Origin: Eledone cirrhosa | Lineage: Eukaryota | DNA length: 64,000 nt | Reading direction: 5' to 3' | Assembly: GCA_964016885.1 (NCBI GenBank) | Contig: OZ024743.1 | Span: forward strand, 161,820,001-161,884,000 | Shown here: one piece after another, positions 5,368-62,746 of the stretch | How the letters are laid out: the number at the start of each line of letters is the position of its first letter | Position numbering within the stretch: the stretch's first letter is position 1 | Notes under the pieces: generated by a model | Told to the model about the DNA's origin: nothing | Database searches by the model: none | What the model saw: the letters and a program-made list of their open reading frames with translations, nothing else | Made by a program: the position numbers and the translations under genes

Positions 5368-5539
5368 AGATGGAAATAAAGGGAATGTAGTTATAAAATC
5401 TTTTTGAAGCCCAAAGAAGACCCACTAAAGACGGTCACAAATTTTTTTCAGAATGACAAAGACATTTAATTTAAATAAAATGTATTATATGAAAAAGAAA
5501 ACAATATTTTGAATAAATTTGTAGTTATAGTATATATAT

Positions 5540-13820: not shown

Positions 13821-14839
13821 TTGTTGATGGTAAATTGAGTTGAACAATGAAGTTTCTTCTCTCCCGAAAGAGCATCTTATGATAGGTATTTTATTATATA
13901 TATATATCTTACAAATTTTAATCTATGCCTTCCTAGTAATGAAATAGAAACAACACAGATTACAATTGCAGAGATATCATTTAATTTTCCATGTGTATAA
14001 ATTATGGTTAATATTAGCTTTTAGCATTAATTGACATTTCAACATATAGATTTAAATATAGATGTTAGAGAATATTATTGCATACTAACATTAATTTATA
14101 TTAATCATGTCTTATACCAAAAAACAGCTCTACAGTGCCTGCAGAAATATGTATAAGTAAGAGCATATTTAATAGAAGATATACCATTTGGTTTCTATCC
14201 CTGTGTAGTGTGCAGGTTTGTATTATAAAAATGTGAAAAAAATTTTGTGAGTACATTTTGTGTGCGTGTGCGCGCGCGTGCGTATACACAAACAATCTAC
14301 ATTTATATCTGAATATTTCTCAGAATTGTTCTGTCTGATTGACATACACTTATTTACATGCTAGCATGGTGTATTTACTACTTACTTCATCTACTTGTCT
14401 GTGTATAAGAATTCATCTTTGCCTTTCTGTCCCAGTCATAGTGTTTACATTTATCTCAAACAATGCAGTGAATCATATGAAGTAATATTTTCTGTCTTCC
14501 ATTTCCCTGTACGTCTATTTCCCTACAGATCAATTACTTTCTGGACGTCTAAAGACACTACAACCCACAGTATGATCACAGTAGAAATGTCTTTAATCAT
14601 AGATCCATTGGATTAAGGTTGAATATGAAGTAAATAAATATACTACTGGATATGGTACAACCCTGCAGAAATGATAAATCATTTATCCAAATGTTTTGGT
14701 ATTTAGTTTCATCTCTCATGTCAATCCAAGGTCAAATTCCATTGAGCTCAACTCATTTAGGAGTAATAATATAAGTGCCTCTAATATATTGTTATATTAG
14801 TGGAGTAGACAATTGATTTAGAGATTCAAACATTTAACA

Positions 14840-17070
14840 ATACACAACATTACACCAACACACATTTCACTAACACACAACATTACACCAACACACATTT
14901 CACTAACACACAACATTACACCAACTCCAAAACTTTACACCAACACACAACATTACACCAACACACAACATTACACCAACACACATTTCACTAACACACA
15001 ACATTACACCAACACACATTTCACTAACACACAACTTTACACCAACACACAACTTTACACCAACACACAACTTTACACCAACACACAACATTACACCAAC
15101 ACACAACATTACACCAACTCCAAAACTTTACACCAACACACAACTTTACACCAACACACAACTTTACACCAACACACAACTTTACACCAACACACAACTT
15201 TACACCAACACACAACATTACACCAACACACAACATTACACCAACTCACAACATTACACCAACTCACAACATTACACCAACTCCAAAACTTTACACCAAC
15301 ACACATTACACTCACCAATACACATTACACCAACTCACAACATTACACCAACGCACAACATTACACCAACACACAACATTACACCAACACACAACATTAC
15401 ACCAACACACAACATTACACCAACACACAACATTACACCAACACACAACATTACACTCACCAACTCACAACATTACACTCACCAACTCACAACATTACAC
15501 TCACCAACTCACAACATTACACTCACCAACTCACAACATTACACTCACCAACTCACAACATTACACTCACCAACTCACAACATTACACTCACCAACTCAC
15601 AACATTACACTCACCAACTCACAACATTACACTCACCAACTCACAACATTACACTCACCAACTCACAACATTACACTCACCAACTCACAACATTACACTC
15701 ACCAACTCACAACATTACACTCACCAACTCACAACATTACACTCACCAACTCACAACATTACACTCACCAACTCACAACATTACACTCACCAACTCACAA
15801 CATTACACTCACCAACTCACAACATTACACTCACCAACTCACAACATTACACTCACCAACTCACAACATTACACTCACCAACTCACAACATTACACTCAC
15901 CAACTCACAACATTACACTCACCAACTCACAACATTACACTCACCAACTCACAACATTACACTCACCAACTCACAACATTACACTCACCAACTCACAACA
16001 TTACACTCACCAACTCACAACATTACACTCACCAACTCACAACATTACACTCACCAACTCACAACATTACACTCACCAACTCACAACATTAAACCAACTC
16101 ACAACATTACACCAACTCACAACATTACACCAACTCACAACATTACACCAACTCACAACATTACACCAACTCACAACATTACACCAACTCACAACATTAC
16201 ACTCACCAACACACAACATTACACCAACACACAACATTACACCAACGCACAACATTACACCAACGCGCAACATTACACCAACGCGCAACATTACACCAAC
16301 GCGCAACACTACACCAACGCGCAACACTACACCAACGCGCAACATTACACCAACGCGCAACATTACACCAACTCGCAACATTACACCAACTCGCAACATT
16401 ACACTCGCCAACTCACAACATTACACTCGCCAACTCACAACATTACACTCGCCAACTCACAACATTACACTCGCCAACTCACAACATTACACTCGCCAAC
16501 TCACAACATTACACTCGCCAACTCACAACATTACACTCGCCAACTCACAACATTACACTCGCCAACTCACAACATTACACTCGCCAACTCACAACATTAC
16601 ACTCGCCAACTCACAACATTACACTCGCCAACTCACAACATTACACTCGCCAACTCACAACATTACACTCGCCAACTCACAACATTACACTCGCCAACTC
16701 ACAACATTACACTCGCCAACTCACAACATTACACTCGCCAACACAGCATTACACTCGCCAACACACAGCATTACACTCGCCAACACACAGCATTACACTC
16801 GCCAACACACAGCATTACACTCGCCAACACAATATAACTCTCACCAACACACAATATAACTCACCAACTCACAACAACATTACACTCACCAACACACTCA
16901 CCAACACACAACAACATTACAACAACCAACACACAACATTATACTCACCAACACACAACATTACAACAACCAACACGCAACATTACAACAACCAACACAC
17001 AACAACATTACAACAACCAATACACAACAACATTACAACAACCAACACACAACATTACACTCACCAATAC
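14840..17070. repeat. Compound CA-rich minisatellite (18- and 22-bp units)
   Basis: Blocks of ACACAACATTACACCAAC, ACTCACAACATTACACTCACCA and ACTCACAACATTACACTCGCCA. Confidence 0.97.
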
Positions 17071-19242
17071 AACAACCGCTCAAACATCGATTTTATCAAC
17101 ACACAAGCACATAGACATCGATTTTATCAACCACAAGCACATAGACATCCTGTTTCTACTCTCTATATCATTTATCACTACTATAATGGCAACCTGTATA
17201 TATCTGCCCACCTGATGCATACAAATCTTCTAAAATCATCCTGGCAGTCTCCCCCCCCCCCCCCCCCCCCCCACCTTTAGCATTAAATAATTTTTAGAAT
17301 CCTTCCTTCTCACACCTGCAACCCTCTAACAGAGCCCTTTCTGTCTGTGTTATTTCTGCAAACATTGAACTACAGATCTTCAAACTGAATATTAGTCACA
17401 TCAATCTCAGCAATCTAGGGGGACTTATAATGGTCATGACACTAACTGATTAACTAATAAAAAATATATACTTGTTAATGAGATCTCAAATTATGATTAT
17501 AGGTCAAACTATAATAGCATTGTATAAAATGTCAGGTGGTGACATTTACATCTAGATTGATCAAGTTATTCTCTTACAAAATATCAAAACCACTAACTGA
17601 AAATAGTGAGTGGTCATCCATGAGAGCCATGGATGACCAAGCCATCAGATAATCAGCAGAGACCAGCAGATTGCATACCATCACAGGGATTTCTGCGTCA
17701 CTTTCAGTACAGTTCAAATAGCTGTAGGATAGTTTGTTGTAAGCAGTATCAGTTGTATAAAATTTAACAAGGATTTTTACAGCTTGTTCCTGTAGGCTTT
17801 AGTGACCATGATAGACATACTATCAATGCAAATCTATTTTCCAATACAATCTCAAACATTCCACTCTAAATGAAGTAAAACTGAGATAAACTAAAGGAAA
17901 TAAAGGAAAACTAGACATAAACAGCATACATTCAACATAATACATTGGATAAGTTCAATTCTCTTCCAACTCTATTTCTATCTATGCTTTCTATAAAGAC
18001 ATCAACTGGCAAATATTCAAGCTGGACATCAATCACAACAGTGCCACCTGATCATGGTATAAGAGAAATAGCAATGAAATTTCTCTCAACTACTCTCCAG
18101 TCTTCAATAATCGCACCACCCCCCAACACTTATTTTTCAATTTTCACCACCACCACCACCACAAGTGTACTTATCATCAAGAAGGGTACCAGTTGATGAG
18201 GAGGGCTCCAAATTAAGCCACGCAATCAAATAAAGTATTAGTCATGTATTGAGATTGATTTCATTAACTTTGCTCTTCCCTCAAATTTGCTGGCCTTGTG
18301 CCTAAATTAGAAATCAATATTTAGTTATGACCTTTTAAATTCCAAGTTCAAATCCTATTGGAGTGTCTTTTCTCTTTCCAAGCTTAATATAATAGAATAA
18401 GTAGCGGTCAAGAAAGCAATAGATGTCCCTTAATCTGATCTGCACAACACATGCCAGGACAGACCACCATCTCCATAAATGGGAAATGAAAGACAGCACA
18501 GCATGTGACTAGAGATACTGAGCTGACCTTTTTACATGTTCTTCGGGATTTCCCCCCTCAGACATTTTCCCCGGCAGGAGGCAATCCATAATACTACAAA
18601 TGGTGTCTTAGTCTGGCTCACCAATCACAATCTACCTCTCTAACTATTGTGCATATGCCAAGAGGAAGTGGCAGTCAAGTACTAGGGGCAATCATTCTAA
18701 TCCAATTTTATGGTCTTGTTATAAATTAATAGGATTATAATTTTTAGTGCTATTATCCTTATCTTTAAAGATAATTTTTTTTTTTAAATATATGATATCT
18801 ATGTTATGTTTCAGTTGGTTTGAACTTCAGTTATCACTAGGAGTCCTATTCTAGGATGTGAACATAGGTCTAGTGGATAAGAATGGTACCCTTAATTTAG
18901 AAATAAAGTTTCCTAGTTCAAATTTAGTCTAGGACTATGTACACATCAGGAATATGACAGCTGATGATTAAATGATAGAAAGTCAACCAATGAAAACATA
19001 ACATCACCATTTAAAGTCCATTTTCCATGCTTGCATGGGTTACATATACTATAACGCTATGAGACTAAATAGATCAGGTGACCAAGTTTTGCTCATACAA
19101 TCTGTTTTGTGTTTGGTTTTCTATGACTGGGTACCCTTCCTAACCACAATCACAGTACAGGAAGTACAGAGAGTGGACTGAGTGCTAGGAATAAATATTA
19201 CCATTTTTCATCTCTAAAACATTTCCTACTAAGCAGTAACCT

Positions 19243-21149: not shown

Positions 21150-21333
21150 AGGTGTGCTCAAAACAAGGTGATTCTCTTTAGTCCATTCCTGAAGGATGCT
21201 TCTATGCCCAGTATTAGGCATGAAATTATGATGTCCTCTTTTTTGTCTTTTCTATATATGGTTTAACATTATATAAACACTTTACTACAGGTATATACTG
21301 AACTCTAATGTTTTTACCAATAAATTACAATAT

Positions 21334-22068
<735 letters not shown>

Positions 22069-22680
22069 ATATTTATAGGAAGGGCATCTAGCCGTAGAAA
22101 ACTTGCCAGACAAAGGTTCGGGTGGACCCACCAGTCATGTCAAAGGCATGACAACCTCCCTAGTGTTGGTGATTTACACGATAAACACACCCAGTACACA
22201 CTGTAAGGTGGTTGGTAATCCAGCTGTAGAAATTTTGCCAAAGAAAAATTAGTATTACTTGGTTTACAATATGAGTGGTTATGGTGTGATACACCATTTC
22301 AGATGTTTTCAGCATCTCGACAACTGTCCCCAATGAACCAGCTGTTTTCCCTGTCTTCATATCCTTAATTGCCTTACTATGCTGCAACTGACTTTTATGG
22401 CTGGCCTCTCAGTTGGGTCCCCTTGGGGTAGACTATCTTCCTCCCAACTTAGACCTGCAATTGCCTTAACTTGAACTTAAACAAATCTGCACTAATCTGA
22501 TGCTTTCTATGAACACAAGCAAAGGCAATCCATAAACCTACATTCAATCCCACTTACCAGTCCCATACCACTATAAACAAGGTAAAAATCAAACAAGTCC
22601 TTCAAAATCATACCCCAACACCACCTGCAAAACAACTACCAACATAGACATTCATATGCATCAATTTTGTGTATCCACAT

Positions 22681-23983: not shown

Positions 23984-23990
<7 letters not shown>

Positions 23991-24256
23991 TTCAAAATAT
24001 TAATAAATATAGACATTCATGTGATCAAATATATTTTATTATATATATTTCAGAGGTACTGTGCTGTTTCCTCAGTACGTCCTCATCATTGAGGTAGGTC
24101 AGACATCAATTTATTTTATCTGATGAGGACGTACTGAGGAAACAGCACAGTACCTCTGAAATATATATAATAAAATATATTTGATCACATATTTGATCAC
24201 ATAAAATATATTTGATCACATGAATGTCTATATTTATTAATATTTTGAATTAATAT
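23984..24256. repeat. Fold-back insert between TA tracts
   Basis: Arms 23984-24088 and 24121-24256, 32-nt loop, unique ~90-bp tail on the right. Confidence 0.9.
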
Positions 24257-24529: not shown

Positions 24530-26946
24530 CGACCTCATAGTCAGGACTAGACGTACTCAACAACAGAGGAGGACTATATGGAAGTTAAAGGACCCTACAG
24601 CCAGTAACAAATTTAAAAGCATATTACTTGATGCTTTTGACAGTAAGGAAGAGCAATATAGAGGAACAGTGGGAATTCTTGAAGGGTTAACCTGCTGAAG
24701 GCAACAGATGAATTCTGTGGCTGGAGCAGACCTATAGGCAGGGAGAGAGTAACTTGGTGGTGGAATAGTAAGGTGGAGGAGACAATCAAGGCCAAAAAGC
24801 AGGCTTGGAAAGTATGGCGGGATGGGGGAAGTAGAGAAGACTATCAAGTGGCCAGGAGGGAAGCTAGGAGACAAGTGTACTTTGCAAGAAGGGAAGCCGA
24901 GGAAAGAAAGTTTAAGCCTGTTCTACAACGCGAGGACCAAAAACGTGAGGTGTTCAGGATTGCAAGACAATGTGTCAAGGAAAACCGTGATATTGTCGGC
25001 GAGAAGTGTGTTCATAACGATGATGGTATACTTGCCATCACTGATGCTGATAAGAAGGTAGCTTGGAAGTGTCACTACGAGAGACTATTAAATGAGGAGA
25101 ATAAATGGGAAAAAGATAGTCTGTCCCAAATTGATCCAATAGAAGGACCAGCGGTGCAAGTTAAAGGTAGTATAATAAGTAAGGCAATCAAAGATATGAA
25201 GACAGGCAAAGCAGCTGGGCCTTCGGAGATTGTTGCTTAGATGTTGAAAGCATCTGGAATGGTGGGACAAACTATGGTCACCCGGATAGTAAACCAAAGA
25301 ATACAGAATAGGGTCATACCAAATGATTGGCGTAGCAGCATCATCATTAACTGCTACAAGGGTAAAGGAGATACCCTAGATAGGGGAAACTATAGAGGCA
25401 TTAAATTGATTGACCAGGTCATGAAGGTCACAGAAAGAGTTATAGCACAATTAATCAGAGAGCAAATTGATCTAGATGAAATGCAGTTTGGGTTTGTGTC
25501 AGGTAAAAGTACCATGGACGCTCTTTTCCTTGTACGACAACTACAGGAGAAGTACCTAGCTAAAAGTATAGCCCTATACTTAGCTTTTGTTGACTTGGAG
25601 AAAGCCTTTGACAGAGTCCCCTGCTCCATTAGCTGGTGGGCTCTTAGAAAACTAGGTGTTGATGAATGGCTTGTGAGAGCTATACAAGCTATGTATAAAG
25701 AAAGTTAACTTGTCTAACACTAAAGTTCCAGTATGTAGAAAGGAAAACAGGGTACAGGTACCCTCTGGAAAATGGCCATGCTCAGTGTGTAGGAAAGAAG
25801 TAGGCAGAAATTCCATTTTCTGTCTCAAATGCAAATTATGGGGACATAAAAGTTGTAGTGGGATCACAGGTAAACTATCTAAGAACGTAGACTTTATATG
25901 TGGCCAATGCTCAGGTGCAATAAGTAGCAAGTGCCCACAGGATACTAGCTCCTTCTATTGCCCAGATGGTTCTATAGAAAAAGTGGGCACTTTCCGTTAC
26001 CTGGGTGACAAAATCAGCAGTGGTGGAGGGTGCTCTGAAAGTACAGTAGCCAGAGTCAGAACGGGATGGAAAAGTTCAGAGAGCTTATACCACTATTGAC
26101 CACTAAAGGTTTCTCTCTAAAAATGAAAGGCAGATTGTATGATGCTCGTATACGAACAGCAATGTTACATGGCAGTGAGACATGGGCCTTGTGTACAGAG
26201 GATCTGCGCAGACTGGAGAAGAACAAAGCATCCATGCTCTGTTGGATGTGTAATAGTAATATACGCGAACGGCAAAGCATAAATGAACTAAGTGAGAAAT
26301 TAGGAATAAGAGGGATCAGATGCTGTTTACTCGAAAGAAGACTACGTTGGTATGGTCACGTGATGCACATGAAAGACGACAGTTGTATAAAAAAGTGCAG
26401 AGCGATCAAAACTGATGGAACTTACGGAGTAGGTAGACCCAGAAAAACCTGGGACGATTTGATAAATTCCCACCTCACACATTTACACCTCTCTAAGACA
26501 ATGTAACTGGACCGAGAGCTTTGGCGCTACGCAGTAATACTTGCCTATGTACAAAGCGAAACCTACAATCAGTAGGCACCTCTTAACCAAATATATGCCC
26601 CATCCAACTACCCCTACTCACTCCCACCAACACCACCCTTTCTCTGTAAAGTTATGTTGGTACCACAACATCCAGTCCAAAATAAATAAGGTTCTGTAGG
26701 TGTCACGACAAAAAAACACAGTCCACGCTGTAATGTGGCCGTGTAGGTAACACGGTAAAAACCTCCCAGTCCACACTGTAAACGTAGTTGGTGTTAGGAA
26801 GGGCATCCAGCCGTAGAAAACCTGTCAGACAGCCCTATTACGAGCGAGACATGGTCACCCGACCAATCTTGCCTCAAGTGGGACAATTCCCGTCTAAACC
26901 CATGCTAGTGTGGAAGATAGACGTTAAACGTTGATGATGATGATGA
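24530..26946 (+). mobile_element. RTE-clade LINE, 5'-truncated and internally deleted, with PHD-like finger
   Basis: ORFs give KGKGDTLDRGNYRGIKL, MQFGF, LAFVDLEKAFDRVP, FRYLG, MLHGSETW, RLRWYGHV and GRPRKTW. Ends in (GAT)n. The QG and YADD motifs are missing (jump near 25703). Confidence 0.92.
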
Positions 26947-26949
26947 TAC

Positions 26950-27575
26950 ACATATCAATCTGGTGAACACACAAGCCAAATTGATTACTTGTTAGACAAG
27001 ACAATTGGACTGTAATAAATACTAAGGCCTTCCATGGGGAAGAATACACTGCCCAGCATAAGTTAGTTATTAGTGACATCAAAAATAAACTGAAGACAGA
27101 ACAAGACACGCAGGAAAATATGGAGATGGAGGGTTTGAAAACTAAAGGACTTCTCAGTTAAATATAGGTTTAGAAAGGCCCTACAGGATGCACTTGGTGA
27201 GAGGGGTGACGAGCTAGATACATAGAAGATTGAGGGCAACTGGGAATTTTTATACAGCAATCTTTTGAGAACTACTGGCAACATTTGTGGCTGGTGTAAA
27301 GTGCCAGCCAGACTGAGGGTGACATGGCGGTGGAACAGCACAGTAGAGGCAACCATTAAAGCCAAGAGGCAGGCATGGAAAGACTGGAAAAATGAGGGTA
27401 GCAGAGACCGCTAAGAAAGAAGCTAGGTGACAGATATACACAGCTCACAGAGACGCTGAAGAATGTAAATTTGCCAATGTCTTAAGACATGAGGATCAGA
27501 GGCATGAGGTGTTCTGTACTCCAAAGCAGTGTGTTAGTGTGAATCGAGATGGGGAAAAATGTGTTAGAAATGACG
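26950..27575 (+). mobile_element. RTE LINE endonuclease C-terminal/linker fragment
   Basis: Reads TYQSGEHTSQIDYLLVRQ and matches the linker of the copy at 60285. Confidence 0.75.
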
Positions 27576-27844
27576 CACAACTCCTTTTTCTATTTTTTTT
27601 TTTTTTTTGCTTCTCAATTATGCTCCATTCCTTTCCTTCTCTCCCTACCCCTCTTTCTCCTAACTTCCTTTCCTAAACCTCACACACTACCCCTACATCT
27701 ACCTGTTCTTTCCCTATCTGAACTTATTTCATGAAGGACTTCTGTCCAAAATGTTGATACTTCTCCACTTCCTTCCAGCATGAACTTAATATAACTCTAT
27801 TTTTGCATTCCTATGTTTGTTTTGTTTTGTTTCATTTTACATGC

Positions 27845-27877
<33 letters not shown>

Positions 27878-27940
27878 CTCACACGCATACATGCACACGT
27901 GTGTGTGTATATATATATACATACATACATATATACATAC

Positions 27941-28734
27941 ATGATGGCTGCCCCCTCGTTATCGAGTATGGCCATTGCACGATATACCATTATTAATAAT
28001 TATTAATTAATTCTATCGTGCAATGCCTGTGCATGAAGATATTTTTTAAAGTGAGGAAAGACTGTGCACTGAGCCATACCACTCTCTGAGTGACAGTAGC
28101 TATAACCCGAAAGGAAGAAAAGATCAACATCATCGGTAACTACTGAGCCGCAGGTTTTATATCAGAGTTATCCCAGTTTCCTGAGTTGCCTTCTCCTAGA
28201 AGAATGCCCTAACAAAGGCTAGGTGTCCTTCACTCCCAGTGGTTTAACTGCGCGATCGAGTGTCCAGCCCAACTATTTCTATGTCCCGGCGCATATACAC
28301 ACACAAAATCAGCCTCCTCACCAAGAAAAACTTGGTGGGGTTGCCAGTTTCGTCGCGGACGACCCGACCATGTGAGAAGTTGTACTGGGTTACCAGTTAC
28401 CAGTAGCACTCAAGAGTGACCCTACATACATACATACACATCATACATACATAAATACATATATACATATATTTCTATATCCCCGCGCATATACATACAC
28501 ATATACATATACATACATGTACATGTGCATATACATATTTACACACTTTTGGATGGCCGTTGACTCATATGAGTTCTTCCGCCCTTTTCAGGTTTTGTTT
28601 TTTGTCCTGCAGGGTGTCCAAAATCACCCTCCTCATCAAGTAAACTTGGTGGGGTTGCCGGTTTAGTCGCCGATGACCCAACCATGCGACAGGTTGTACT
28701 GGGTTATATGTTACCAGTAGCACAAGAGTGACCC
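27941..28734 (-). mobile_element. Two bipartite RTE derivative copies (27941-28422 and partial 28547-28734)
   Basis: Reverse complement of the 59621 5' block (GGTGGGGTTGCC.GTTT.GTCG...GTAGCAC...GTGACC), each ending in (CATA)n. Confidence 0.7.
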
Positions 28735-28762
28735 GAAATACATACATACATACACACAAACA

Positions 28763-31086
28763 TTATTGGTCCCCAAGAATCAAGACACCCACTTGGCAAA
28801 AAACTACCAAACCATTGCATGCCAGAACCTGATGTATAAGATGTATACAGCCTGCCTGAACCTATTCCTCCAAGATCACTGTGAAAATAATATCATCATC
28901 ACAGATGAACAAGCAGCTGGAAAGAAAGGGGTTTGGGGGTGTGCTGAACAACTCCTAATCAACAAAACTGTGATGTCGGAGGTGCGACAACTTAGGAGGA
29001 ATATGGCTACAGTCTGGCTGGACTACAAGAAAGCTTTCGATTCTGTTCCCCACTCTTGGATGATAGAGGCCTTCCGACTTGCTAAAGTCCCAGACATTAT
29101 TGTCAGAGCCATAGAGAGGCTGTCTTCTTGGACTACTATCCTAAAGTTAAAGACAGAGAAGGAGGACTCTATTTTCACTGATAAAATAAAATATCGCAGG
29201 GGTATATTTCAGGGAGACAGTCTCTCTGTGATATTATTCATCCTGTCATTAAATCCCTTGTCCTTTCTGCTCAAGAAATGTGAAGGATACATCATTGGCT
29301 CACAGGAGGACAGAAATATGAACCTAACCCATAATTTCTTTGTGGATGAACTGAAACTATGCCAAGAACATGGATGGGATGAAGAAAAATCTTGACCTGG
29401 TTACAACATTCTCAAAGGATATAGGAATGGAGTTTGGCCAAGATAAATGCTCATACATGACTGTAAAGCGGGGAAAAACAACAACCCAATCTAGCAACAT
29501 TGTCATCGATGGCCTAACTGTTTCACTGATTCTGATGAGGACTGCTATAGATACCTGGGGATAGATGAGAACATATCCGGTATCTGTAATAAGGAACACA
29601 TAACCAGGGAATACTTCACTCGATTAAGAAAGATATGGTCTTCAGAACTCTCTGCGCAAAACAGAACAGTGGCTCACAATGTGTTTGCTGTGCCTGTCCG
29701 AACACGAATGTTTGGAATACTCAATTGGACGATAGACGAAATCCGAGCAATTGATGTTAGAACACGAAAAATACTAAACAACACCGGAAACTTCCACATC
29801 AACAGTGACATAGACCGCCTTTACTTCAAACGTAAGCAGGGAGGCAAAGGCCTAACATCAGTCCAGACAGCATTTGAATGTCGCATCATATCCCTCCAAC
29901 AACATCTACGAACCTCGAAGCTTAGGAGCCCGTCTCTGTGCATGAAACAGATAAGATCATAAGAGTTGGGAAGGAACTCCTCGAAAGATATCCCCTGTGT
30001 GATAATCAAAAACTCACACCCAGGGAAGTCGCTCAGCAGTATCGCAGTGAATCCATGGATGGAAAACTGCATGCTTATTAGCAAAAAATCATGCATGGAT
30101 ATGTTGCCAGGAAGCTCCAGAGTGAGAGTAATATAGATAAAGAAAGTAGTCTATCTTGGACCAACAACCGCTATATTGGCTCCCACTTTGAAGGATACGC
30201 TTTTGCAATCCAAAAACAGGAAATCAACACGAAATACCCGATTCACAAAAGAGATAGGGATGCAGGCAAAACACCTAGATGTGATAACAAGTGCAGACTC
30301 TGCAGAATTAACATTGACGATGTCACCCATGTCATAAGCACCTGTCCAAAGATGTCATCGTGGTACTATCTACCTATGAGGCATGATGTAGTGGCCAAAA
30401 CACTGTACAACGCAATCCGTAGAAAAGATAGCCTCGATAATAAACGCAATAAAAGCTACAGCAATATGGAAGACATATATACATAATATGAAAGAGTACT
30501 GGTGGAATGTTCCAGTAAAAACCCCAATAAAATGCAGGCATAACAGACCAGATATGATATGGGACAGGGAGAAGAAAACATGCACAATAAGTGGAAGTTA
30601 GCTGCCCAGCAGATGCCAATATAATATCAAAGATTGGCGAAAAGGAGAATATTTATGCAGAACTGATGAGAAATCTGCAGATACTCCACCCTGATTACAC
30701 CTTCAGATTTATGCCTGTGATTATTGGGGCATTGGGATATGTTAGTAACTGCCTCAATACAAATCTTGAGAAGCTAGGCTTCACAGGAACAGAAAGAACA
30801 ACTAGTTAGGAAACTACAAGTACAATCCATTAATGGAACAGTAAAAATATGTAAAACATTCCAAAAATGTTGCATCTAATAACTGCATATACACATGTAC
30901 AGATACAAAGCATATACACATCCACACATACAATAACATCCATACCTACACATGCATGCAGACATGCAGACATATCTACCTAGTTGATGGTGTGTAAATT
31001 CCAATGAGTGAGTCTTGTAACTATGTTAGAAACCAACTCTCTCTCTCTATTGGCAAAAATTTGTGAAATTATAAAACCAGAAGAAC
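28763..31086 (+). mobile_element. R4/Dong-like non-LTR retrotransposon with restriction-like endonuclease, 5'-truncated and frameshifted
   Basis: RT motifs WLDYKKAFDSVPH, GIFQGDSLS, FVDE and RLY..RKQGG.GL. CCHC knuckle CRLC..NIDDVTHVISTC, RHD, HNRPD and EVSCP (RLE). Flanked by (CATA)n. Confidence 0.88.
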
Positions 31087-39417: not shown

Positions 39418-39617
39418 GTAAATAGAAGCAGGAGAGAGGTCAAAGTTGCAACATAATTGAATTTTATTACATATGACAATTGTTTCAATATCGTAAATGA
39501 TCGGGGCCCGATTCTGTACCGACATCTTATGATTGAGCACTGGGCTGATCGATATTGAAACAATTGTCATATGCTATAAAATTCATTTATGGTGTAACTT
39601 TGACTTCGTTCCTGTTT

Positions 39618-39821: not shown

Positions 39822-40089
39822 ATATTGTTATGTTTTGGGAGGGTCATGTTGCCAATAAGAAACACACGCACCAATTGCTTTCACTTCAATTTATTATAAA
39901 TTTAAGAATTTATAAATTTCCGGTTGGTTGGTTGGTTCCACAACCAGACGAAAGAACTTTGACAATATATGAACAATCGTCTGGTTGTGGAACCAACCAA
40001 CCAACCGGAAATTTATAATAAATTGAAGTGAAGCAACTGGTGCGTGTGTTTCTTATTGGCAACATGACCCTCCCAAAGTATAACAATAT
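39822..40089. repeat. Fold-back insert between TA tracts
   Basis: Arms 39822-39951 and 39977-40089. Confidence 0.9.
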
Positions 40090-40244: not shown

Positions 40245-40336
40245 GCCTGCATAGCTCAGTCGGTAGAGCATCAGACTTTTATAGCATATATTATGAAGGT
40301 ATCTGAGGATCGCGGGTTCAAGTCCCTCTGCGGGCG
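40245..40336 (+). tRNA. tRNA-Lys(UUU) with a 19-nt intron (40282-40300)
   Basis: GCCTGCA TAGCTCAGTCGGTAGAGC A TCAGA CTTTTA [TAGCATATATTATGAAGGT] A TCTGA GGATC GCGGGTTCAAGTCCCTC TGCGGGC G. A and B boxes present, cloverleaf stems pair, intron at canonical 37/38. One C:U mismatch in the T stem. Confidence 0.93.
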
Positions 40337-40456: not shown

Positions 40457-40792
40457 ATAATATAAGATCAAAAGATGGTTAAAGGAGTTCCATATATTTT
40501 ATTATGCGCATTTCAAAAACAAACATCATCAAGCAATAATATTTGTGTTTTCATCAGATAAAACAGGAGAACATGATATGAAGGCTAAAAAACACTTGTT
40601 GATAGTGCAGTTTTAAATCAACATATGTTGATTTAAAACTGCACTATCAACAAGTGTTTTTTAGCCTTCATATCATGTTCTCCTGTTTTATCTGATGAAA
40701 ACACAAATATTATTGCTTGATGATGTTTGTTTTTGAAATGCGCATAATAAAATATATGGAACTCCTTTAACCATCTTTTGATCTTATATTAT
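40457..40792. repeat. Perfect 336-bp palindrome
   Basis: 168-bp arms, centre ACAT|ATGT at 40624/40625, no loop. Confidence 0.95.
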
Positions 40793-53359: not shown

Positions 53360-53414
<55 letters not shown>

Positions 53415-53443
53415 AAAGAATAGAGGTGTAACACACAAGTTAT

Positions 53444-53846
53444 TATATATTGGTAAACGGAATAGAAAATGCTGACAAATTGTTCACAGTTGAAAAATGG
53501 TTTAATTAGGAATAAAAGAGTATTGGTGATTGTATGGGTTAGTATTCAGTTGTGGTTTTAAGTTTTTAAGTTTTTACCGGTTGCGCATTTCTAAATGCTT
53601 TTCAAAAATAATTTTGAGATAGAGTGTCCGTGCTGTTTGCTCTGATCTCCAGATCAGAGCAAACAGCACGGACACTCTATCTCAAAATTATTTTTGAAAA
53701 GCATTTAGAAATGCGCAACCGGTAAAAACTTAAAAACTTAAAACCACAACTGAATACTAACCCATACAATCACCAATACTCTTTTATTCCTAATTAAACC
53801 ATTTTTCAACTGTGAACAATTTGTCAGCATTTTCTATTCCGTTTAC

Positions 53847-53855
<9 letters not shown>
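53444..53855. repeat. Near-perfect 412-bp palindrome
   Basis: 205-bp arms, 2-nt loop (CC at 53649-53650), TA tracts on both sides. Confidence 0.95.
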
Positions 53856-53907
<52 letters not shown>

Positions 53908-53910
<3 letters not shown>

Positions 53911-54843
53911 TCATCATCATCATCAACGTTTAACGTCCGTGTTCCACGCTTGCATGGGTTTGGACGGGGGTAGTCCCACTTGAGGCAAGAGTGATTGTCT
54001 TGCTCGCATAGGACTGTCTGGCAGGTTTTCTACAGTTGGATGCCCTTCCTAACACCAACCACATTTACAGTGTGGGTCTGGGAGGTTTTTACCGTGTTGC
54101 CTACACGGCCACATTACAGCGTGGACTGTGTGTTTTTTTGTCGTGACACCTACACGATCTCATTTGTTTCGGCCCGGATGGCGCGGCACCAACATAACTT
54201 TACATAGGACGGGGTGGTGTGGATGGGGTGGGGGTGGTGGTGGTGGGACGGGGTGTATTTTGTTAGAGATGCCTACTGGCAAGGCGGGTCTTCTCTGTTA
54301 CTGAGTACCGCCAAAGGTCTCGGTCCAGTGACATTGTCTTGGAGAGGTGTAAGTGTGTGAGGTCGGAGTTTATCAGCTCGTCCCAGGTTTTTCTAGGTCT
54401 GCCTATTCCGTGGCTACCGTCTATCTTTATTGCCCTGCACTTTGTTATACAGCTATCGACTTTCATGCGCATCACGTGTCCATACCAACGTAGCCTTCTC
54501 TCGAGTAAACAACATCTGATCCCTCTTATCTCTAATTTTTTCCTTAGTTCGTTTATGCTTTGCCGTTCACGTATATTACTGTTACACATCCAGCGGAGCA
54601 TGCAAGCTTCGTTCCTCTCTAGTCTGCGTATATCCTCTGCACACAATGCCCAGGTCTCACTGCCATGCAACATTGCTGTTCGTATGCAGGCATCGTACAA
54701 CCTGCCTTTCATTTTTAGGGAGAACCCTTTAGCAGCTAATAGTGGTATAAGCTCTCTGAACTTTTTCCAACCAGTTCTGACTCTAGCTACAGTACTTTCA
54801 GAGCACCCTCCCCCACTGCTGATTTTATCGCCCAGGTAACGGA
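53908..54843 (-). mobile_element. Young RTE LINE 3' portion, head-to-head with the 54864 copy
   Basis: Minus-strand ORF RYLGDKISSGGG...GRPRKTW, with the tail seen as (CAT)n on plus at 53908. Confidence 0.93.
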
Positions 54844-54863
54844 TATATATATATATATATATA

Positions 54864-56246
54864 ACAGTGGAGTTCACGACCGGCTGCCCATGGGAACTCC
54901 TATACGCAGATGATCTAACGCTCATAGCTGAATCAATGGCCGAACTAGAGAAGAAATTTCAAACATGGAAGCATGGCCTAGAATGAAAAGGTCTTAAAAT
55001 TAACCTGTCTAAGACTAAAGTTCTAGTTTGTAGGAAGGAAAATAGGGCGCCGGTCCCCTCCGGGAAATGGCAGTGCTCAGTGTGTAGGAAAGGAGTAGGT
55101 AGAAACTCCATTTTATGTCCCAAATGCAAAGTATGGGTGCATAAAAGATGTAGTGGGATCACAGGTAAGCTAACTAAGAACATAGATTTTATATGTGGCC
55201 GGTGCTCTGGTTCAATAAGTAGCAGCAAGTGCCCACAGAATACTAGCTCTTTCAATTGCACAGATAGTTCTATAGAAATAGTAGACAGCTTCCGTTACCT
55301 GGGTGACAAAATCAGCAGTGGGGGAGGATGCTCTGAGAGTACAGTAGCTAGAGTCAGAACTGGATGGAAAAAGTTCAGAGAGCTTATACCACTATTAGCC
55401 GCTAAAGGGTTCTCCCTAAAAATGAAAGGCAGGTTGTATGATGCCTGCATACGAACAGCAATGTTGCATGGCAGTGAGACCTGGGCATTGTGTGCAGAGG
55501 ATATACGCAGACTAGAGAGGAATGAAGTTTGCATGCTCCGCTGGATGTGTAATAGTAATATACGTGAACGGCAAAGCATAAACGAACTAAGGGAAAAATT
55601 AGAAATAAGAGGGATCAGATGTTGTTTACTCGAGAGAAGGCTACGTTGGTATGGTCACGTGATGCGCATGAAAGACGACAGCTGTATAAAAAAGTGCAGA
55701 GCAATAAAAATAGACAGTAGCCACGGAGTAGGCAGACCCAGAAAAACCTGGGACGACTTGATAAATTCCGACCTCACACACTTACACCTCTCCAAGACAA
55801 TCTCACTAGACCGAGATCTTTGGCGCTACACAGTAATAGAGAAGACCCGCCTTACCTAAATACAAAGTAAACCTACTACAGTCAGTAGGCACCTCTAACA
55901 AAATACACTCCCGTCCCACTACCCCCACCCCATCCACGCGACCCCTTTCAATGTAAAGTTATGTTGGTACCAACATCCAGGCCGAAACAAATGAGGTCGT
56001 GTAGGTGTCACGACAAAAAAACACACAGTCCACGCTGTAATGTGGCCGTGTATGTAACATGGTAAAAACCTCCCAGTTCCACACTGTAAATGTGGTTGGT
56101 GTTAGGAAGGGCATCCAGCTGTAGAAAACCCGCCAGACAGTCCTATGCGAGCAAGACAACCACTCTTGCCTCAAGTGGAAAAACTCCAGTCCAAACCCAT
56201 GCAAGCATGGAATATGGACGTTAAACGATGATGATGATGATGATGA
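54864..56246 (+). mobile_element. Young RTE LINE 3' portion (YADD to tail)
   Basis: CPWELLYADDL, then the 259-aa ORF with PHD-like finger, FRYLG, RLRWYGHV, GRPRKTW, a 3'UTR and (GAT)n. Confidence 0.93.
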
Positions 56247-56328
56247 AATATATATATATATATATAAATATATACATATATATATATAAATATATACATA
56301 TATATATATATGCACATATATATATATG

Positions 56329-56516
56329 CATCATCATCATCATCATCATCATCGTTTAACGTCCGTGTTCCATGCTTGCATGGGTTTGGATGGGAGTTTT
56401 CCCACTTGAGGCAAGAGTGGTTGTCTTGCTCGCATAGGACTGTCTGGCGGGTTTTCTACAGTTGGATGCCCTTCCTAACACCAACCACATTTACAGTGTG
56501 GACCACATTTACAGTG
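56329..56516 (-). mobile_element. Short RTE 3'-tail insertion; another at 57528-57688
   Basis: (CAT)n-CGTTTAACGTCCGTGTTCC...GATGCCCTTCCTAACACC. The 57528-57688 copy appears identical to 53908-54068. Confidence 0.85.
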
Positions 56517-56558
56517 TACATATATGCACATATATATATATATATATACATATATATA

Positions 56559-57437
56559 TCATCATTGCATTTTACATCCCTGCTTGCAAGGGTGGGACAG
56601 GAACTGATTCTGGCTTGATTTCTACAGCTGGATGCCCTTCCTAACACCAATTTCATTTATAGTGAGTGCTGGGTGTTTTTTTGCCATGGCACCTCCACGA
56701 CCACTTTGCAGTGGAATAATATAGACCCCCAGTCCCTATCATCTCATTTCTACAGCTGAGTAAACTGGAGCAATGTCAAATAAAGTGTCTTGCTCAAGGA
56801 AACAACACATCACCCGTCTGAGAATTGAACTGACAACCTTTTGATTGCAAGGCCAATGCTCTAACCACTAAGCCATGTGCCTCCATCATATATATATACA
56901 TACATATATATACATATATATATACACATATATACATATATGGATATACATATATATATATATGGATATACATATATATATATATATATATATATGGATA
57001 TACATATATATATATGCATATGCACATATATATATATGCATATACACATATATATATATATGCATATACATATATATATCTGCATATACATATATATATA
57101 TATATATATGGAGGCACATGGCCTTGCAATCGAAAGATTGTGAGTTCAATTCTCAGACCAGGTGATGTGTTGTTTCCTTGAGCAAGACACTTTATTTGAC
57201 ATTGCTCCAGTTTACTCAGCTGTAGAAATGAGATGATAGGGACTGAGGTCCATATTATTCCACTGCAAAGTGGTCGTGGAGGTCCCACAGTAAAAAAGCA
57301 CCCAGCACTCACTGTAAATGAGGTTGGTGTTAGGAAGGGCATCCAGCTGTAGAAATCAAGCCAGAATCAGTTCCCGTCTCACCCTTGCAAGCAGGGAAAA
57401 AGTGGACGTAAAATGAAATGATGAAAATGATGAAATG
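56559..57437. mobile_element. Head-to-head pair of SINE B copies (56559-56884 minus, 57109-57437 plus)
   Basis: Reverse-complement copies separated by a TA-rich tract. Confidence 0.85.
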
Positions 57438-57771
57438 ATATACATATATATATATATATGCATATACATATATATATATATATGCATATACATATATATA
57501 TATATATATATATGCATATACATATATCATCATCATCATCATCATCAACGTTTAACGTCCGTGTTCCACGCTTGCATGGGTTTGGACGGGGGTAGTCCCA
57601 CTTGAGGCAAGAGTGATTGTCTTGCTCGCATAGGACTGTCTGGCAGGTTTTCTACAGTTGGATGCCCTTCCTAACACCAACCACATTTATACATATATAT
57701 ATATGCATATATATATATATATATATATATGCATATACATATATATATATATACATATATATATATGAATA

Positions 57772-57805
<34 letters not shown>

Positions 57806-57807
57806 CA

Positions 57808-59194
57808 TATATAGAGATTACAATAATCAAAGTTCAATTTAAATCATTTATTTGCTTACAATTGTTTCCTCCAAACCGAGGTTTGGATTCTTCGGAGCAA
57901 CTATTTAGTGATCTATAACATACTTGACCTCCTTTTCAACACAAGAGACATATAAAAACATATGCATATATTGACCCACAGTGGGATGACATCCATCAAA
58001 ATGATAAAGCATGGCAATTTACATATAAAGGTTAAAAGATAAAAATAAAAATAAAAATAAAAATAAAAATAAAAATAAAAATAAAAATAAAAATAAAAAT
58101 GAAACATTGGCAGTTTATGCAGATAAAGCAAGAGGAAAGTTTAGAGTAGTCAGTGTATGAAACAATCTCACGTGTAGCATGCACGCGTGTCTTATTTATA
58201 CAGGATTAGAGTGCGGCAGATTGTTACTTGCAGGGTCAGGCAGTTGAAGCAGGCAATCGATATTATTATGTGGGCTGAATTGTTAAATCATTTTTTCGCA
58301 TACACCTGTATGATATACAATCCCGAATGTAGAGAAACACCAAAATATCAAAAATATCAAACATATTATAAAACATATTATAGCGTAGGCAAAACAATAA
58401 CTTGGTTATATGCTGAACCATCGTGGATTATATGATAGACCCGTGGTCTCTATATATTGCGTCTCATGGATTATGTGAGTGGTGGTGTGCGCGGGGGCAG
58501 TGGTACTGTTTTGCCTACGCTATAATATGTTTGATATTTTGGTGTTTCTCTACATTCGGGATTGTATATCATACAGGTGTATGCGAAAAAATGATTTAAC
58601 AATTCAGTCCACATAATAATATCGATTGCCTGCTTCAACTGCCTGACCCTGCAAGTAACAATCTGCCGCACTCTAATCCTGTATAAATAAGACACGCGTG
58701 CATGCTACACGTGAGATTGTTTCATACACTGACTACTATAAACTTTCCTCTTGCTTTATCTGCATAAACTGCCAATGTTTCAATTTTATTTTTATTTTTA
58801 TTTTTATTTTTATTTTTATTTTTATTTTTATTTTTATTTTTATTTTTATTTTTATTTTTATTTTTATTTTTATTTTTATTTTTATTTTTATTTTTATTTT
58901 TATTTTTATTTTTATTTTTATTTTTATTTTTATTTTTATTTTTATTTTTATTTTTATTTTTATCCTTTAACCTTTATATGTAAATTGCCATGCTATATCA
59001 TTTTGATGGATGTCATCCCACTGTGGGTCAATATATGCATATGTTTTTATATGTCTCTTGTGTTGAAAAGGAGGTCAAGTATGTTATAGATCACTAAATA
59101 GCTGCTCCGAAGAATCCAAACCTCGGTTTGGAGGAAACAATTGTAAGCAAATAAATGATTTAAACTGAACTTTGATTATTGTAATCTCTATATA
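57808..59194. repeat. 1.4-kb inverted repeat with internal (AAAAAT)n and a hammerhead-like motif in each arm
   Basis: Arms 57808-58396 and 58507-59194, 110-nt loop, ~165-bp tail on the right. Confidence 0.95.
59103..59149 (+). ncRNA. Minimal type I hammerhead-ribozyme-like motif; mirror copy at 57852-57900 (-)
   Basis: TGCT-CCGAAGA-A-TCCAAAC(CTCG)GTTTGGA-G-GAAAC-AATT-GTA-AGCA: stem I, core variant, stem II, palindromic stem III and GUA site. Confidence 0.65.
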
Positions 59195-59487
59195 ACTGCT
59201 CTGTAAAACAACCTATGTTATTACATTGAGCTATTTATCTTACTGGTAATAAGATAGTAATTAATGACTATCTTTCACTATTTAGGGTTTGTATAAAAAA
59301 TATATAACCATAAAAGGTTTTATTACATACATAACCATAAATAGTATCCTTAATACTATATACATATATATATATATACATATATATATATACATATATA
59401 TATATACATATATATATACATATATATATACACATATATATATACACAAATATATACACACATATATATAACCATATATATATACAC

Positions 59488-59518
<31 letters not shown>

Positions 59519-59539
59519 TATATTCATATATATATACAC

Positions 59540-59572
<33 letters not shown>

Positions 59573-59620
59573 CACATATATATATATACATATGTATATA
59601 TATATGTATATATATATGTA

Positions 59621-60285: not shown

Positions 60286-62746
60286 TAACTTCCAGAAACC
60301 TGCCAACCACCTAATAACCTACAAATCAGGTGAGCACATAAGCCAGATTGACTTCTTAATAGTTAGGCAGCGAGACAGGCAGATAATATCTAATACCATA
60401 ATACCAAGGCATACCCTGGGTAAAAATGTACCCCACAGCATAGGTATAGGTTAATCGTTAGTGATATCTCAGTAAGCAAGAGATGGAATGAGATATACAG
60501 GAAGGTGTGGAGATGAAAGGTCTGAAAGCTAAAAGACCTTTCACTAAAATACAAATTTAGGAAAGCCCTTCAAGATGTGTATGACGAAAAAGAAGACGAT
60601 TTAGAGATGTATGACATAGATAATAACTGGAATTTCTTATGTGACAACTTACTGCAGCCTACTGATGAAACTTGTGGCTGGAGCAGAGCTCCAACCAGAC
60701 AGAGAGTGACCTGGTCGTCGTGGAACAGCACAGTAGATAAGGCCATTAAAAACAAAAGACTAGCATGGAAGGCTTGGAAAAAGGGTGGGAGTAGGAAACG
60801 TTATACAGCCGCTAAGAGAGAAGCTAGATGTCAGGTGTACTTAGCACGCAGGGAGGCTGAGAGTAGGAGGTTTGCCAATGTTCTGCGACGGGAAGATCAG
60901 AGGCGTGCAGTGTTCCACATTGCAAGGCAGTGTGTCAATGCAAATCAGGATGTTGTTGGAGATAAATGTGTCCAGAATGATGCCGGTGTACTTAGTGTCA
61001 CGAATGATCAGAAAAAGGAGGCCTGTAAATGTCATTATGAGAGACTGATGAATGTGGAGAACGAATGGGAGAGAGAGAAATTACCCTCAGTAGAGCCGAC
61101 AGAGGGACCAGCTATTGAGATTGATGAATATAGGGTCCTAGAGGCGATTAAGGAAATGAAAAATGGTAAGGCTGCTGGACGATCGGGGATAGTTGCTGAG
61201 TTGCTGAAGGCATCAGGGGACGTTGGCACTAAACTGGTTGCACGCATCATCAATCAGGCTATATATGGTGGTGTCATACCCAAAGACTGGTGCAGCAGTA
61301 TTCTCATAAATTGCTACAGATGTAAAGGGGATGCTCTGGAGAGGAGCAATTATAGGGTTATAAAACTGATGGATCAGGTTATGAAAGTGGCAGAAAGGAT
61401 ATTAGCACAACTAATTAGAGAAAGGGTCAAACTAGATGAGATGCAGTTTGGTTTTGTGCCTGTACAACAGATGCCCTCTTCTTGGTGAGACAATTGCAAG
61501 AGAGGTTCTTAGAGAAAATTAAGCCACTATACTTAGCCTTTGTTGACCTAGAGAAGGCCTTTGATAGGGTAAACCAATCTGTCATCTGGTGGTCCCTAAG
61601 AAAACTAGGTGTTGAGGAATGGCTTGTGAGGACAGTGAAAACAGAGGTGCTGTCAGTAAAGTCAGGGTAGGAATGGAGTTTAGTGAGGAATTCCAGACAC
61701 AAGTAGGAGTACATCAAGGTTCGGTCTTCAGCCCACTCTTGTTCATTATAGTCCTCCAGCCATAACAGCGGAGTTTAAGACTGGCTGTCCATGGGAATTT
61801 CTCTATGCTGACGATCTGGTTCTTATAGCAGAATCAGTAGAGTATCTAGAGAATAAATTCTGGCGATGGAAACAGCAGTTGGAAGCAAGAGGCCTGAGAG
61901 TGAACATAGCTAAGACAAAAGTGTTGAGGACAAAACTCTGATTCCATCAGGGAAATGGCCATGTTCGATATGCAGAAAAGGAACTGGCATAAATTCTATA
62001 AAATGCACACAATGCAGATCTTGGGTACCCAAGAGATGTAGTGGGATAGCAGGCAAACTAACAGGTAGGGAGAAATACGTATGCAGTAGATGTACAGGGA
62101 AATTAGACAGTAGAAGTCGCATTGATAGACACATTTTTCAAATGCAAGCGGGTGGTATAGAAGTGGTGGATAGCTTCCGGTACCTAGGAGATCAGATTAG
62201 CATGGGAGGAGGGTGTTCCGAGGCCATAGTATCTTGAATAAGGACGGGTTGGAAGAAATTTAGGGAGCTGCTCCCTCTGCTGAGGAAGAAGGGTTTCTCC
62301 CTGCGTACAAAAGGCCGGTTATATGATGCCTGTGTGAGGAGCGCAATGCTGCATGGTAGTGAGACATGGGCAGTAACTGCAGAGGATATGCGACGGCTGG
62401 AGAGAAATGAGGCAAGCATGCTCCGTTGGATGTGCAATGTCAATGTGCGTGAACGACCCAGCATGAATGTGTTGAGAGAGAAACTGTGTCTGAAGGGATA
62501 GAATGTAGTCTGCGAGAGAGGAGACTGCGGTTGTATGGACATGTGATGCGCATGGTGGATGACCGAAATGTCAGTTGAAGGAAATGCCAGTTGAAAGAAG
62601 ACATGGTAGAGGTAGACCACGAAAAACATGGACGGAGGTGGTGAGAAGAGACCTCAGATCGCTGTAGATCATGATGGAGATGCTGTGCTGAATAAGACCT
62701 GTCCCGCCCTTGAAAGCAGGGAAAAGTGGACATAAAATGATGATGT
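60285..62746 (+). mobile_element. RTE-clade LINE, frameshifted, from endonuclease C-terminus to 3' tail
   Basis: ITYKSGEHISQIDFL, NYRVIKL, DLEKAFDRV, HQGSV, LYADDL, PHD-like Cys cluster, FRYLG, MLHGSETW, and a 3' GGACATAAAATGATGATG tail. Confidence 0.92.

Follow-up and report, generated by a model that had tools for sequence, protein, structure and literature searches.

A hairpin in the Eledone cirrhosa genome as a probable head-to-head insertion of a Penelope-like element with a C4 hammerhead motif

How does a hairpin come to carry, in both of its arms, a hammerhead motif with C in place of U at core position 4, and could such a motif still work? We followed up this question in a window of 64,000 nucleotides of E. 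cirrhosa DNA (assembly GCA_964016885.1, contig OZ024743.1, positions 161,820,001 to 161,884,000, forward strand), the window being the whole stretch that was analysed; positions below are those of the window unless a contig or another copy is named. An earlier note on this stretch had described an inverted repeat with a hammerhead in both arms and placed it at 57808..59360. The inverted repeat is there in the window sequence (arms 57808-58396 and 58507-59194, loop of 110 nt), with C3 of the motif at 59107 (+) and 57895 (-), but the hairpin stops at 59194 and the rest of that interval, 59195-59358, is an unpaired tail outside it. The features are as follows (end points marked + are distances in nt from the cleavage site):

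57688..57813, no strand: (TA)n microsatellite, left half of the target, read from the sequence (copies of the family end in TA or TC tracts)
57808..58396, minus: left arm, an inverted, 5'-truncated 3' end of a Penelope-like element (PLE) that reaches no farther than the near end point (+44 to +49)
57852..57900, minus: hammerhead motif of the left arm, with C4 core, A10.1.G11.1 and 5-bp stem I, the commonest form in the family
58041..58100, plus: (AAAAAT)10 in the left arm, a microsatellite inside the 3' UTR (tract of 10-362 nt in other copies)
58397..58506, plus: loop, made of element sequence that the right copy, being longer, has and the left one lacks; the inversion junction falls at 58396/58397
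58397..59358, plus: right copy, free of any ORF, with the final 0.6 kb of the PLE 3' UTR plus hammerhead and tail
58789..58962, plus: (TTTTTA)29, expanded counterpart of the left-arm microsatellite
59102..59150, plus: hammerhead motif of the right arm, with a predicted distal stem I reaching out to about 59082-59168
59195..59358, plus: tail of about 165 nt, on one arm only, ending at the far point (+213); in tandem copies, the 5' UTR of the next unit
59198..59231, plus: first GCUC...UGAGC hairpin (predicted), straight after the near end point
59359..59620, no strand: (TA)n microsatellite, right half of the target, read from the sequence

The hairpin and its parent element

The (TA)n tracts flank the hairpin on both sides, and the right copy (58397..59358) corresponds to 5377-6217 of an intact copy, L127; a second GCUC...UGAGC hairpin lies just past the far end point and is thus missing from the window copy. 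Aligned over 571 columns, the arms differ by seven substitutions, one of which sits at the edge of the junction, and by two gaps, of 21 nt and of 120 nt, the latter falling in the microsatellite, where 10 exact units on the left face 29 on the right, close to the 10 and 30 counted before. The difference of 21 nt, which the earlier note had put down to small duplications, is a deletion in the right arm, as 12 of 12 other compared copies retain the stretch. When the six inner substitutions were polarised against other copies, three proved to be derived in each arm; because of this even split and the right arm's own deletion, the arms appear to be ageing separately, so that the description of a real, ageing inverted repeat holds. 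Among the listed contigs from four runs of one study the element is deeply covered, and no listed piece spans 58396/58397. A tblastn search of the window copy found no ORF remnant of the element protein, and a suspected second, degenerate hammerhead near 58530-58600, hinted at by a 27-nt repeat, was unsupported in the alignment of copies. On its own, the window hairpin is an ordinary dead copy.

The parent is very abundant in the rest of the genome. A 321-nt query against the 3.0-Gb genome of the species itself gave 3,147 candidates (the best 40 of the 3,147 being 98-100% identical), and the longer copies extend upstream, on the same strand as the hammerhead, into a frame with motifs of a reverse transcriptase (RT, YRDD) and, at its C terminus, of GIY-YIG. 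In full copies this single frame has 830 aa with YRDD and YIG, RT preceding GIY-YIG as in EN+ PLEs, and the hairpin sequence is found 1.4-2.0 kb behind it; the frame is unbroken over at least 820 aa in 28 of the 62 scored protein matches. Two direct hammerhead copies, 4.2-4.7 kb apart, bracket the frame in 12/20 loci fetched around such frames, an arrangement of partial tandems (pseudo-LTRs) with hammerhead that is typical of PLEs, as are the inverted, 5'-truncated copies with a one-sided tail. The earlier assignment of the hammerhead to the PLE type stands.

The protein carries RWR at 41 (RWK in copy L061), DKT at 126, CxCX5C at 689, CxxC at 787 and CxH at 815. These are the motifs given for the Hydra clade (an RWK-like motif, DKT, a CxCX5C linker, CxxC and CxH, with a (TA)n target and C-terminal GIY-YIG; PMC8557442), and the (TA)n insertion preference is found here as well; the descriptive traits of that clade, a length generally under 3 kb and a canonical core, differ from the 4.2-4.7 kb and C4 seen here. 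In the atlas, the neighbours of the 830-aa protein (0.96-0.98) come from animals, and 25-99% of their members have GIY-YIG/HTH_animal, while a Pfam scan of the protein returned no RT or GIY-YIG match and a PDB sequence search nothing usable. As far as sequence goes, the hairpin represents the 3'-terminal part of a Penelope-like element with Hydra-clade motifs, the clade being assigned by these motifs. Other identities fail: a non-autonomous 1-kb element is ruled out by copies that run on into the ORF, a Non-LTR retrozyme by copies that are single, inverted or in 4.2-4.7-kb tandems instead of short head-to-tail units, and a foldback or MITE DNA element by the unequal ends and RT-coding parent.

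One further copy, L313 (contig 1, 56974500-56984400), has the complete 2+2 structure, with two intact 4.17-kb tandems head-to-head whose arms are 99.9% identical over 4,437 nt, and is a very young insertion. Elsewhere in the window, two shorter palindromes (23984-24256 and 40457-40792) contain hammerhead-like motifs with a canonical core, a long A/U stem I and another stem II and loop III; the former type is found again in many loci, where it often occupies both strands, and both are likely 3' fragments of other PLE families. Palindromes at 39426-39617, 39822-40089 and 53380-53908 lie beside (TA)n, the first and last with hammerhead-like 3' halves. The window also holds a tRNA gene at 40245-40336 (+; 56.8 bits, UUU anticodon) with an insertion of about 20 nt after the anticodon, as in intron-containing tRNA-Lys; long CA-rich tandem arrays and a (TG)n tract of about 740 nt (14822-17280 and 21324-22070), which give low-complexity open frames; several broken LINE-like RT fragments (24683-30486, 54263-55859 and 60526-62653); and nested SINE-like repeats arranged as inverted pairs (56078-57689).

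The hammerhead motif and its C4 core

In the right arm the motif comprises C3 (59107), C4 (59108), A10.1 (59114), stem II (59115-59132), G11.1 (59133), G12 (59134), loop III (59139-59142, C-AATT-G) and GUA (59143-59145), with predicted cleavage after 59145. Both arms share the core CCGAAGA, A and G at 10.1/11.1, GAAA, C-AATT-G and GUA, which bears out the change of U4 to C read by the earlier note; its three stems are likewise present, stem I having 5 bp on the left and 4 bp on the right. The residues of a type I three-stem junction (C3, G5, A6, G8, A9, G12, A13, A14, A15.1-U16.1 and H17) are all in place, with C4 where U4 is the rule and A.G where 10.1-11.1 should pair. Among the 140 Rfam matches of the window at E<=1 there is no hammerhead.

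The motif is not due to chance, because a tight 19-nt core pattern with C4 has 5,147 exact matches in the genome against 0 for the reversed control; the same pattern with U4 has 66, and its reversed control likewise 0. With wider patterns (gap of 8-18 for the first count and 6-18 for the other three), a 4-nt loop III gave 8,370 matches with C4 against 394 with U4, and a 3-nt loop III 108 against 6,738. The listed U4 matches of the 4-nt class are scattered over the same stem II types as C4, as we would expect from CpG decay; a small basal U4 subfamily may yet be among them. Alongside these, a small subfamily (e.g. L209, L213, L218, L219 and L237) combines C4 with a 3-nt loop III and is close to the U4 families; it makes up about 45 of the 100 matches listed for this combination and is possibly a second origin of C4. 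The related U4 hammerheads, with at least 6,738 matches in several families, have G-C, G.U, U.U or A.A at 10.1-11.1, and further, unrelated hammerhead types occur genome-wide, a large unexplored PLE repertoire.

Conservation of C4 among genomic copies, which the earlier note had proposed as a check, is seen not only in these counts but also in samples chosen by frame or flank. C4 is present in 72/72 copies of ORF-selected loci (overlapping loci counted twice), 60 of them with a perfect core, and in 23/26 copies of a distant subfamily with 58-69% protein identity (the range for C4 subfamilies overall is 58-98%), taken from 21 of the 30 loci selected by flank; for the TCCAGAC subfamily, a flank-anchored search covered the motif in 5/30 loci. 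In a midpoint-rooted tree of copies from the E. cirrhosa genome only, with five rows under half filled, seven rows (five with a sure link between ORF and hammerhead) form one clade (97/99) apart from the U4 families, which are 44-52% identical in protein. In the youngest subfamily, a comparison over 4,173 nt puts five units with intact frames at 99.6-99.98% identity with a sixth. C4 is therefore a clade trait and not decay, since it dominates across subfamilies 58-98% identical in protein, near-identical intact copies included; for the same reason, near identity with intact frames, C4 with A.G is compatible with recent transposition. Among the texts that our literature search covered, none was found to describe C4 in a PLE or U4C fixed in a retroelement clade; U4C in PLEs may nonetheless be in print already.

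Most copies keep other core positions as well. The 3' UTR of the youngest subfamily aligns to that of the window subfamily over only 161 and 54 nt, and their 49-nt motifs differ at three positions. G5, A6, G8, A9, G12-A15.1 and U16.1 are kept in 60 of the 72 ORF-selected copies, and at position 17 all 26 flank-selected and all 72 ORF-selected copies have A, C or U, without a single G. Within one subfamily core and flank deviate alike (10/312 vs 36/1,029), as expected for dead copies.

Covariation, the other check proposed, was examined in 24 chosen representatives of 42 flank clusters (15 C4 and 9 U4, the latter over-sampled by the searches), and is found in stem II and loop III. Loop III is self-complementary at both positions in 24/24 (AATT, AGTT, AGCT, GATT and GATC, with A-U, G-U and G-C pairs), one stem II pair is A-U in 16, G-C in 5, G-U in 1 and broken in 2, and pairing in the distal stem I helix holds for 83% of cells. 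The covariation score was 0.132, compared with 0.105 +/- 0.008 in shuffles (0/500) and 0.02-0.10 in slid controls; pairs with a double change numbered 9 against 7.2 in shuffles (75/500), and RNAalifold predicted only five stem II pairs. The signal is modest, as related rows may beat shuffles without any structure, and core invariance in this alignment is partly circular, the rows having been retrieved by core patterns. The A.G mismatch, which the earlier note presented as the loss of the G10.1-C11.1 pair, is indeed present, but its weight was overstated: 10.1-11.1 is paired in only 9/24 representatives (the others including A.G, C.A, C.C, C.U and U.U; U-A occurs), it is also open in several U4 families of the genome, and it is mismatched in 15/25 published Hydra families (PMC8557442). 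Because this position varies freely in the family, the mismatch in the window is unremarkable.

Would such a motif cleave? The covariation of stem II and of the palindromic loop III fits dimer cleavage. The earlier note had suggested that C-AATT-G would suit a dimer, and the palindrome does covary, but the two arms cannot supply that dimer: they lie on opposite strands, so that a transcript has one sense motif, and cleavage as a dimer could occur only between direct tandem copies or with a second RNA. For the left-arm monomer, the hammerhead fold is less stable than the lowest fold by 1.7 kcal/mol, and in the short left-arm fold C3/C4 pair with G11.1/G12. In published work, minimal PLE motifs are inactive as monomers and of low activity as dimers (PMC4209133; repeated in PMC6765202); 10.1-11.1 is normally the most conserved pair, although a U.U mismatch there occurs in an active ribozyme, and a viroid U4C variant has much lowered activity in vitro and is still infectious (PMC3088659). 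The window motif combines two such activity-lowering changes, U4C and the open 10.1-11.1. In the anole element, cleavage by the hammerhead requires protein, and insertion in vitro can do without it (PMC11167929). Given the origin described in the next section, slow dimer- or protein-assisted cleavage in tandem elements is what we would lean towards expecting, while a role without catalysis, on the same premise, is conceivable though doubtful.

Formation of the inverted pair and rival readings

Head-to-head pairs are frequent in the family. The first 100 pattern matches on contig 1 fall into 80 clusters, 14 of which are head-to-head with a spacing of 109-6,221 nt, and inverted, 5'-truncated PLE copies with one-sided tails and (TA)n targets are already in print (PMC8557442), as are Penelope-13_HM, a Hydra-clade element in which an inverted, 5'-truncated copy puts a hammerhead on each strand (PMC8557442), and PLE hammerhead pairs on opposite strands 100-700 bp apart (PMC4209133). 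Published and common, the inverted layout is therefore ordinary, and the hairpin with its two hammerheads, although real, is a standard inverted, 5'-truncated PLE insertion, whose weight the earlier note had overstated.

Inner junctions vary from copy to copy, whereas the outer ends are fixed at two sites: measured from the cleavage site, the arms of 14/14 unselected head-to-head pairs end one at +44 to +49 nt and one at +184 to +216 nt, and the same near/far rule is seen in 5/5 further C4 pairs and in 7/7 pairs of U4 families, where the tails are about 100 nt. Departures from the rule are a near/near pair, one among 7, and, in loci selected by their tail, two pairs that are far/far. A sample of 30 loci retrieved without the tail divides into 17 that end at 59189-59195 and 13 that continue towards 59358. 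Each end point directly precedes a GCUC...UGAGC motif, a predicted hairpin (-3.5 to -11 kcal/mol) that is present twice in the C4 subfamilies and also in a U4 family 45% identical in protein. Both arms of the window copy carry the same rare variant. Our literature search found neither the near/far rule nor the twin hairpins for PLEs; one-sided tails are known.

We consider it probable that the locus is a head-to-head, 5'-truncated PLE insertion bearing a clade-wide U4C hammerhead motif that would likely undergo slow dimer cleavage in tandem elements, though not in the window hairpin. The element endonuclease would cut both strands of the (TA)n target, and each cut 3' end would prime reverse transcription on RNA from one source, the two cDNAs starting some 47 nt and some 212 nt, respectively, beyond the cleavage site, with the GCUC...UGAGC hairpin beside each start site serving to dock the enzyme; both cDNAs would stop early, and the joining of their truncated ends would give the head-to-head pair. 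In tandem elements, dimers would cleave via the self-complementary C-NNNN-G stem III, probably aided by the element protein. At the window locus cleavage would have been lost, because the read-through RNA has one sense motif, paired to the antisense arm: in the predicted fold of the whole region the sense hammerhead pairs with the opposite arm, within a duplex of about 570 bp in which 97% of left-arm bases are paired. This scheme fits the anole enzyme, which has two RT start sites, cuts and extends both strands and assists cleavage with protein, though it showed no strand bias in its start sites (PMC11167929).

The reading that comes nearest to this one, and which we nevertheless think unlikely, accepts the same insertion and supposes that the motif is no longer a catalyst, its fold being kept for protein binding or for positioning the template near the RT start. 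It would account for two changes each known to lower activity (PMC3088659) and for the alternative left-arm fold that buries G12, and there is precedent in the anole hammerhead mutants that left insertion unaffected (PMC11167929) and in the Naiad elements, which thrive without canonical hammerheads (PMC8557442). It sits less well with the retention of the other core positions in 60/72 ORF-selected copies, with a core kept across subfamilies whose 3' UTRs barely align, with a position 17 that is never G (26/26 and 72/72 copies) and with a dimer palindrome that covaries, and the viroid U4C ribozyme still works (PMC3088659).

The remaining alternatives concern the hairpin and not the motif. That it is a host-selected locus, a source of dsRNA or small RNA against an active family, would suit both the predicted 570-bp duplex and the recent activity of the family, but such pairs are common (14/80 clusters) and variable in length, the arms have drifted evenly and the window copy is in no way singled out; we regard this as very improbable. 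Hardly more credible, and if anything slightly less, is an inverted duplication after insertion or a foldback/MITE-type DNA element: the long terminal inverted repeats and want of coding capacity in the window are what one would look for, yet the inner junctions differ per copy while the outer ends are fixed at two sites, and the sequence belongs to the 3' end of an element that codes for RT. As for a fold-back read or assembly artefact, microsatellite-flanked palindromes do assemble poorly, but the arms are set apart by a 21-nt deletion, by 20 microsatellite units and by six inner substitutions, three of them derived in each arm, and the asymmetry of the tail obeys the near/far rule of the family, so that we give this explanation practically no weight.

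Returning to the head-to-head insertion with a clade-wide C4 motif, a bolder extension of it, which we put forward only tentatively, is that the fixed-C4 hammerhead is an attenuated, dimer- and protein-gated catalyst and that the twin leader hairpins give each target strand one start site. If so, an old and still mobile clade of animal retrotransposons has been fixed at C4 against CpG pressure, standard CUGANGA searches miss its hammerheads, and the twin hairpins would account at once for PLE tails and inversions. Should C4 dimers cleave, descriptors that demand U4 would undercount hammerheads by thousands in such a genome. The role of PLE hammerheads and the origin of PLE tails and inversions are open questions in the field (PMC8557442); the family offers a natural series within one genome, with U4 and C4 cores, paired and open 10.1-11.1, covarying palindromes and young intact copies, and the near/far rule together with the twin hairpins predicts the start sites for insertion in vitro.

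Comparison with known systems

The published hammerheads closest in form are those of PLEs (Cervera and De la Pena 2014, PMC4209133), which, as here, are of type I with a long helix II, a short helix I and a small palindromic helix III, and occur as dispersed single copies and opposite-strand pairs; unlike the motif described here, they have a highly conserved G10.1-C11.1 and a U3-A8 core variant, and U4C is absent from the portions of that paper that our search covered. The core change itself is that of a viroid U4C hammerhead (Perreault et al. 2011, PMC3088659, from Ambros and Flores 1998), but there it is a rare sequence variant, whereas here it is fixed in an old clade with about 8,400 matches and is joined by the open 10.1-11.1. 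Non-LTR retrozymes (bioRxiv 10.64898/2026.07.22.740005) are protein-less and PLE-derived with a type I hammerhead, as the window copy is, but they form short tandem units, in contrast to a truncated, inverted copy of an autonomous family.

The Hydra clade (PMC8557442) likewise has its hammerhead close to the 3' end; it is generally under 3 kb, compared with a 4.2-4.7-kb unit and a 1.4-2.0-kb 3' UTR here, published PLE tails are 30-40 bp against about 165 nt, all 26 of the 26 listed Hydra rows have U4 (which the descriptor required) and not C4, and the hammerhead of Hydra-1_Obim is unlike the one described here. In the manner of insertion, the nearest likeness is Poseidon of Anolis (PAc; Frangieh et al. 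2024, PMC11167929), which has two internal RT start sites whose interval equals the tail, an AT-rich target, both strands cut and extended, and a protein-assisted hammerhead. Its hammerhead and start sites, however, lie inside the ORF and its tail is short, whereas in the E. cirrhosa family the hammerhead and the putative start sites lie in the 5' UTR, the sites about 165 nt apart and each before a GCUC...UGAGC hairpin, and the inverted pairs appear to use one start site per arm.
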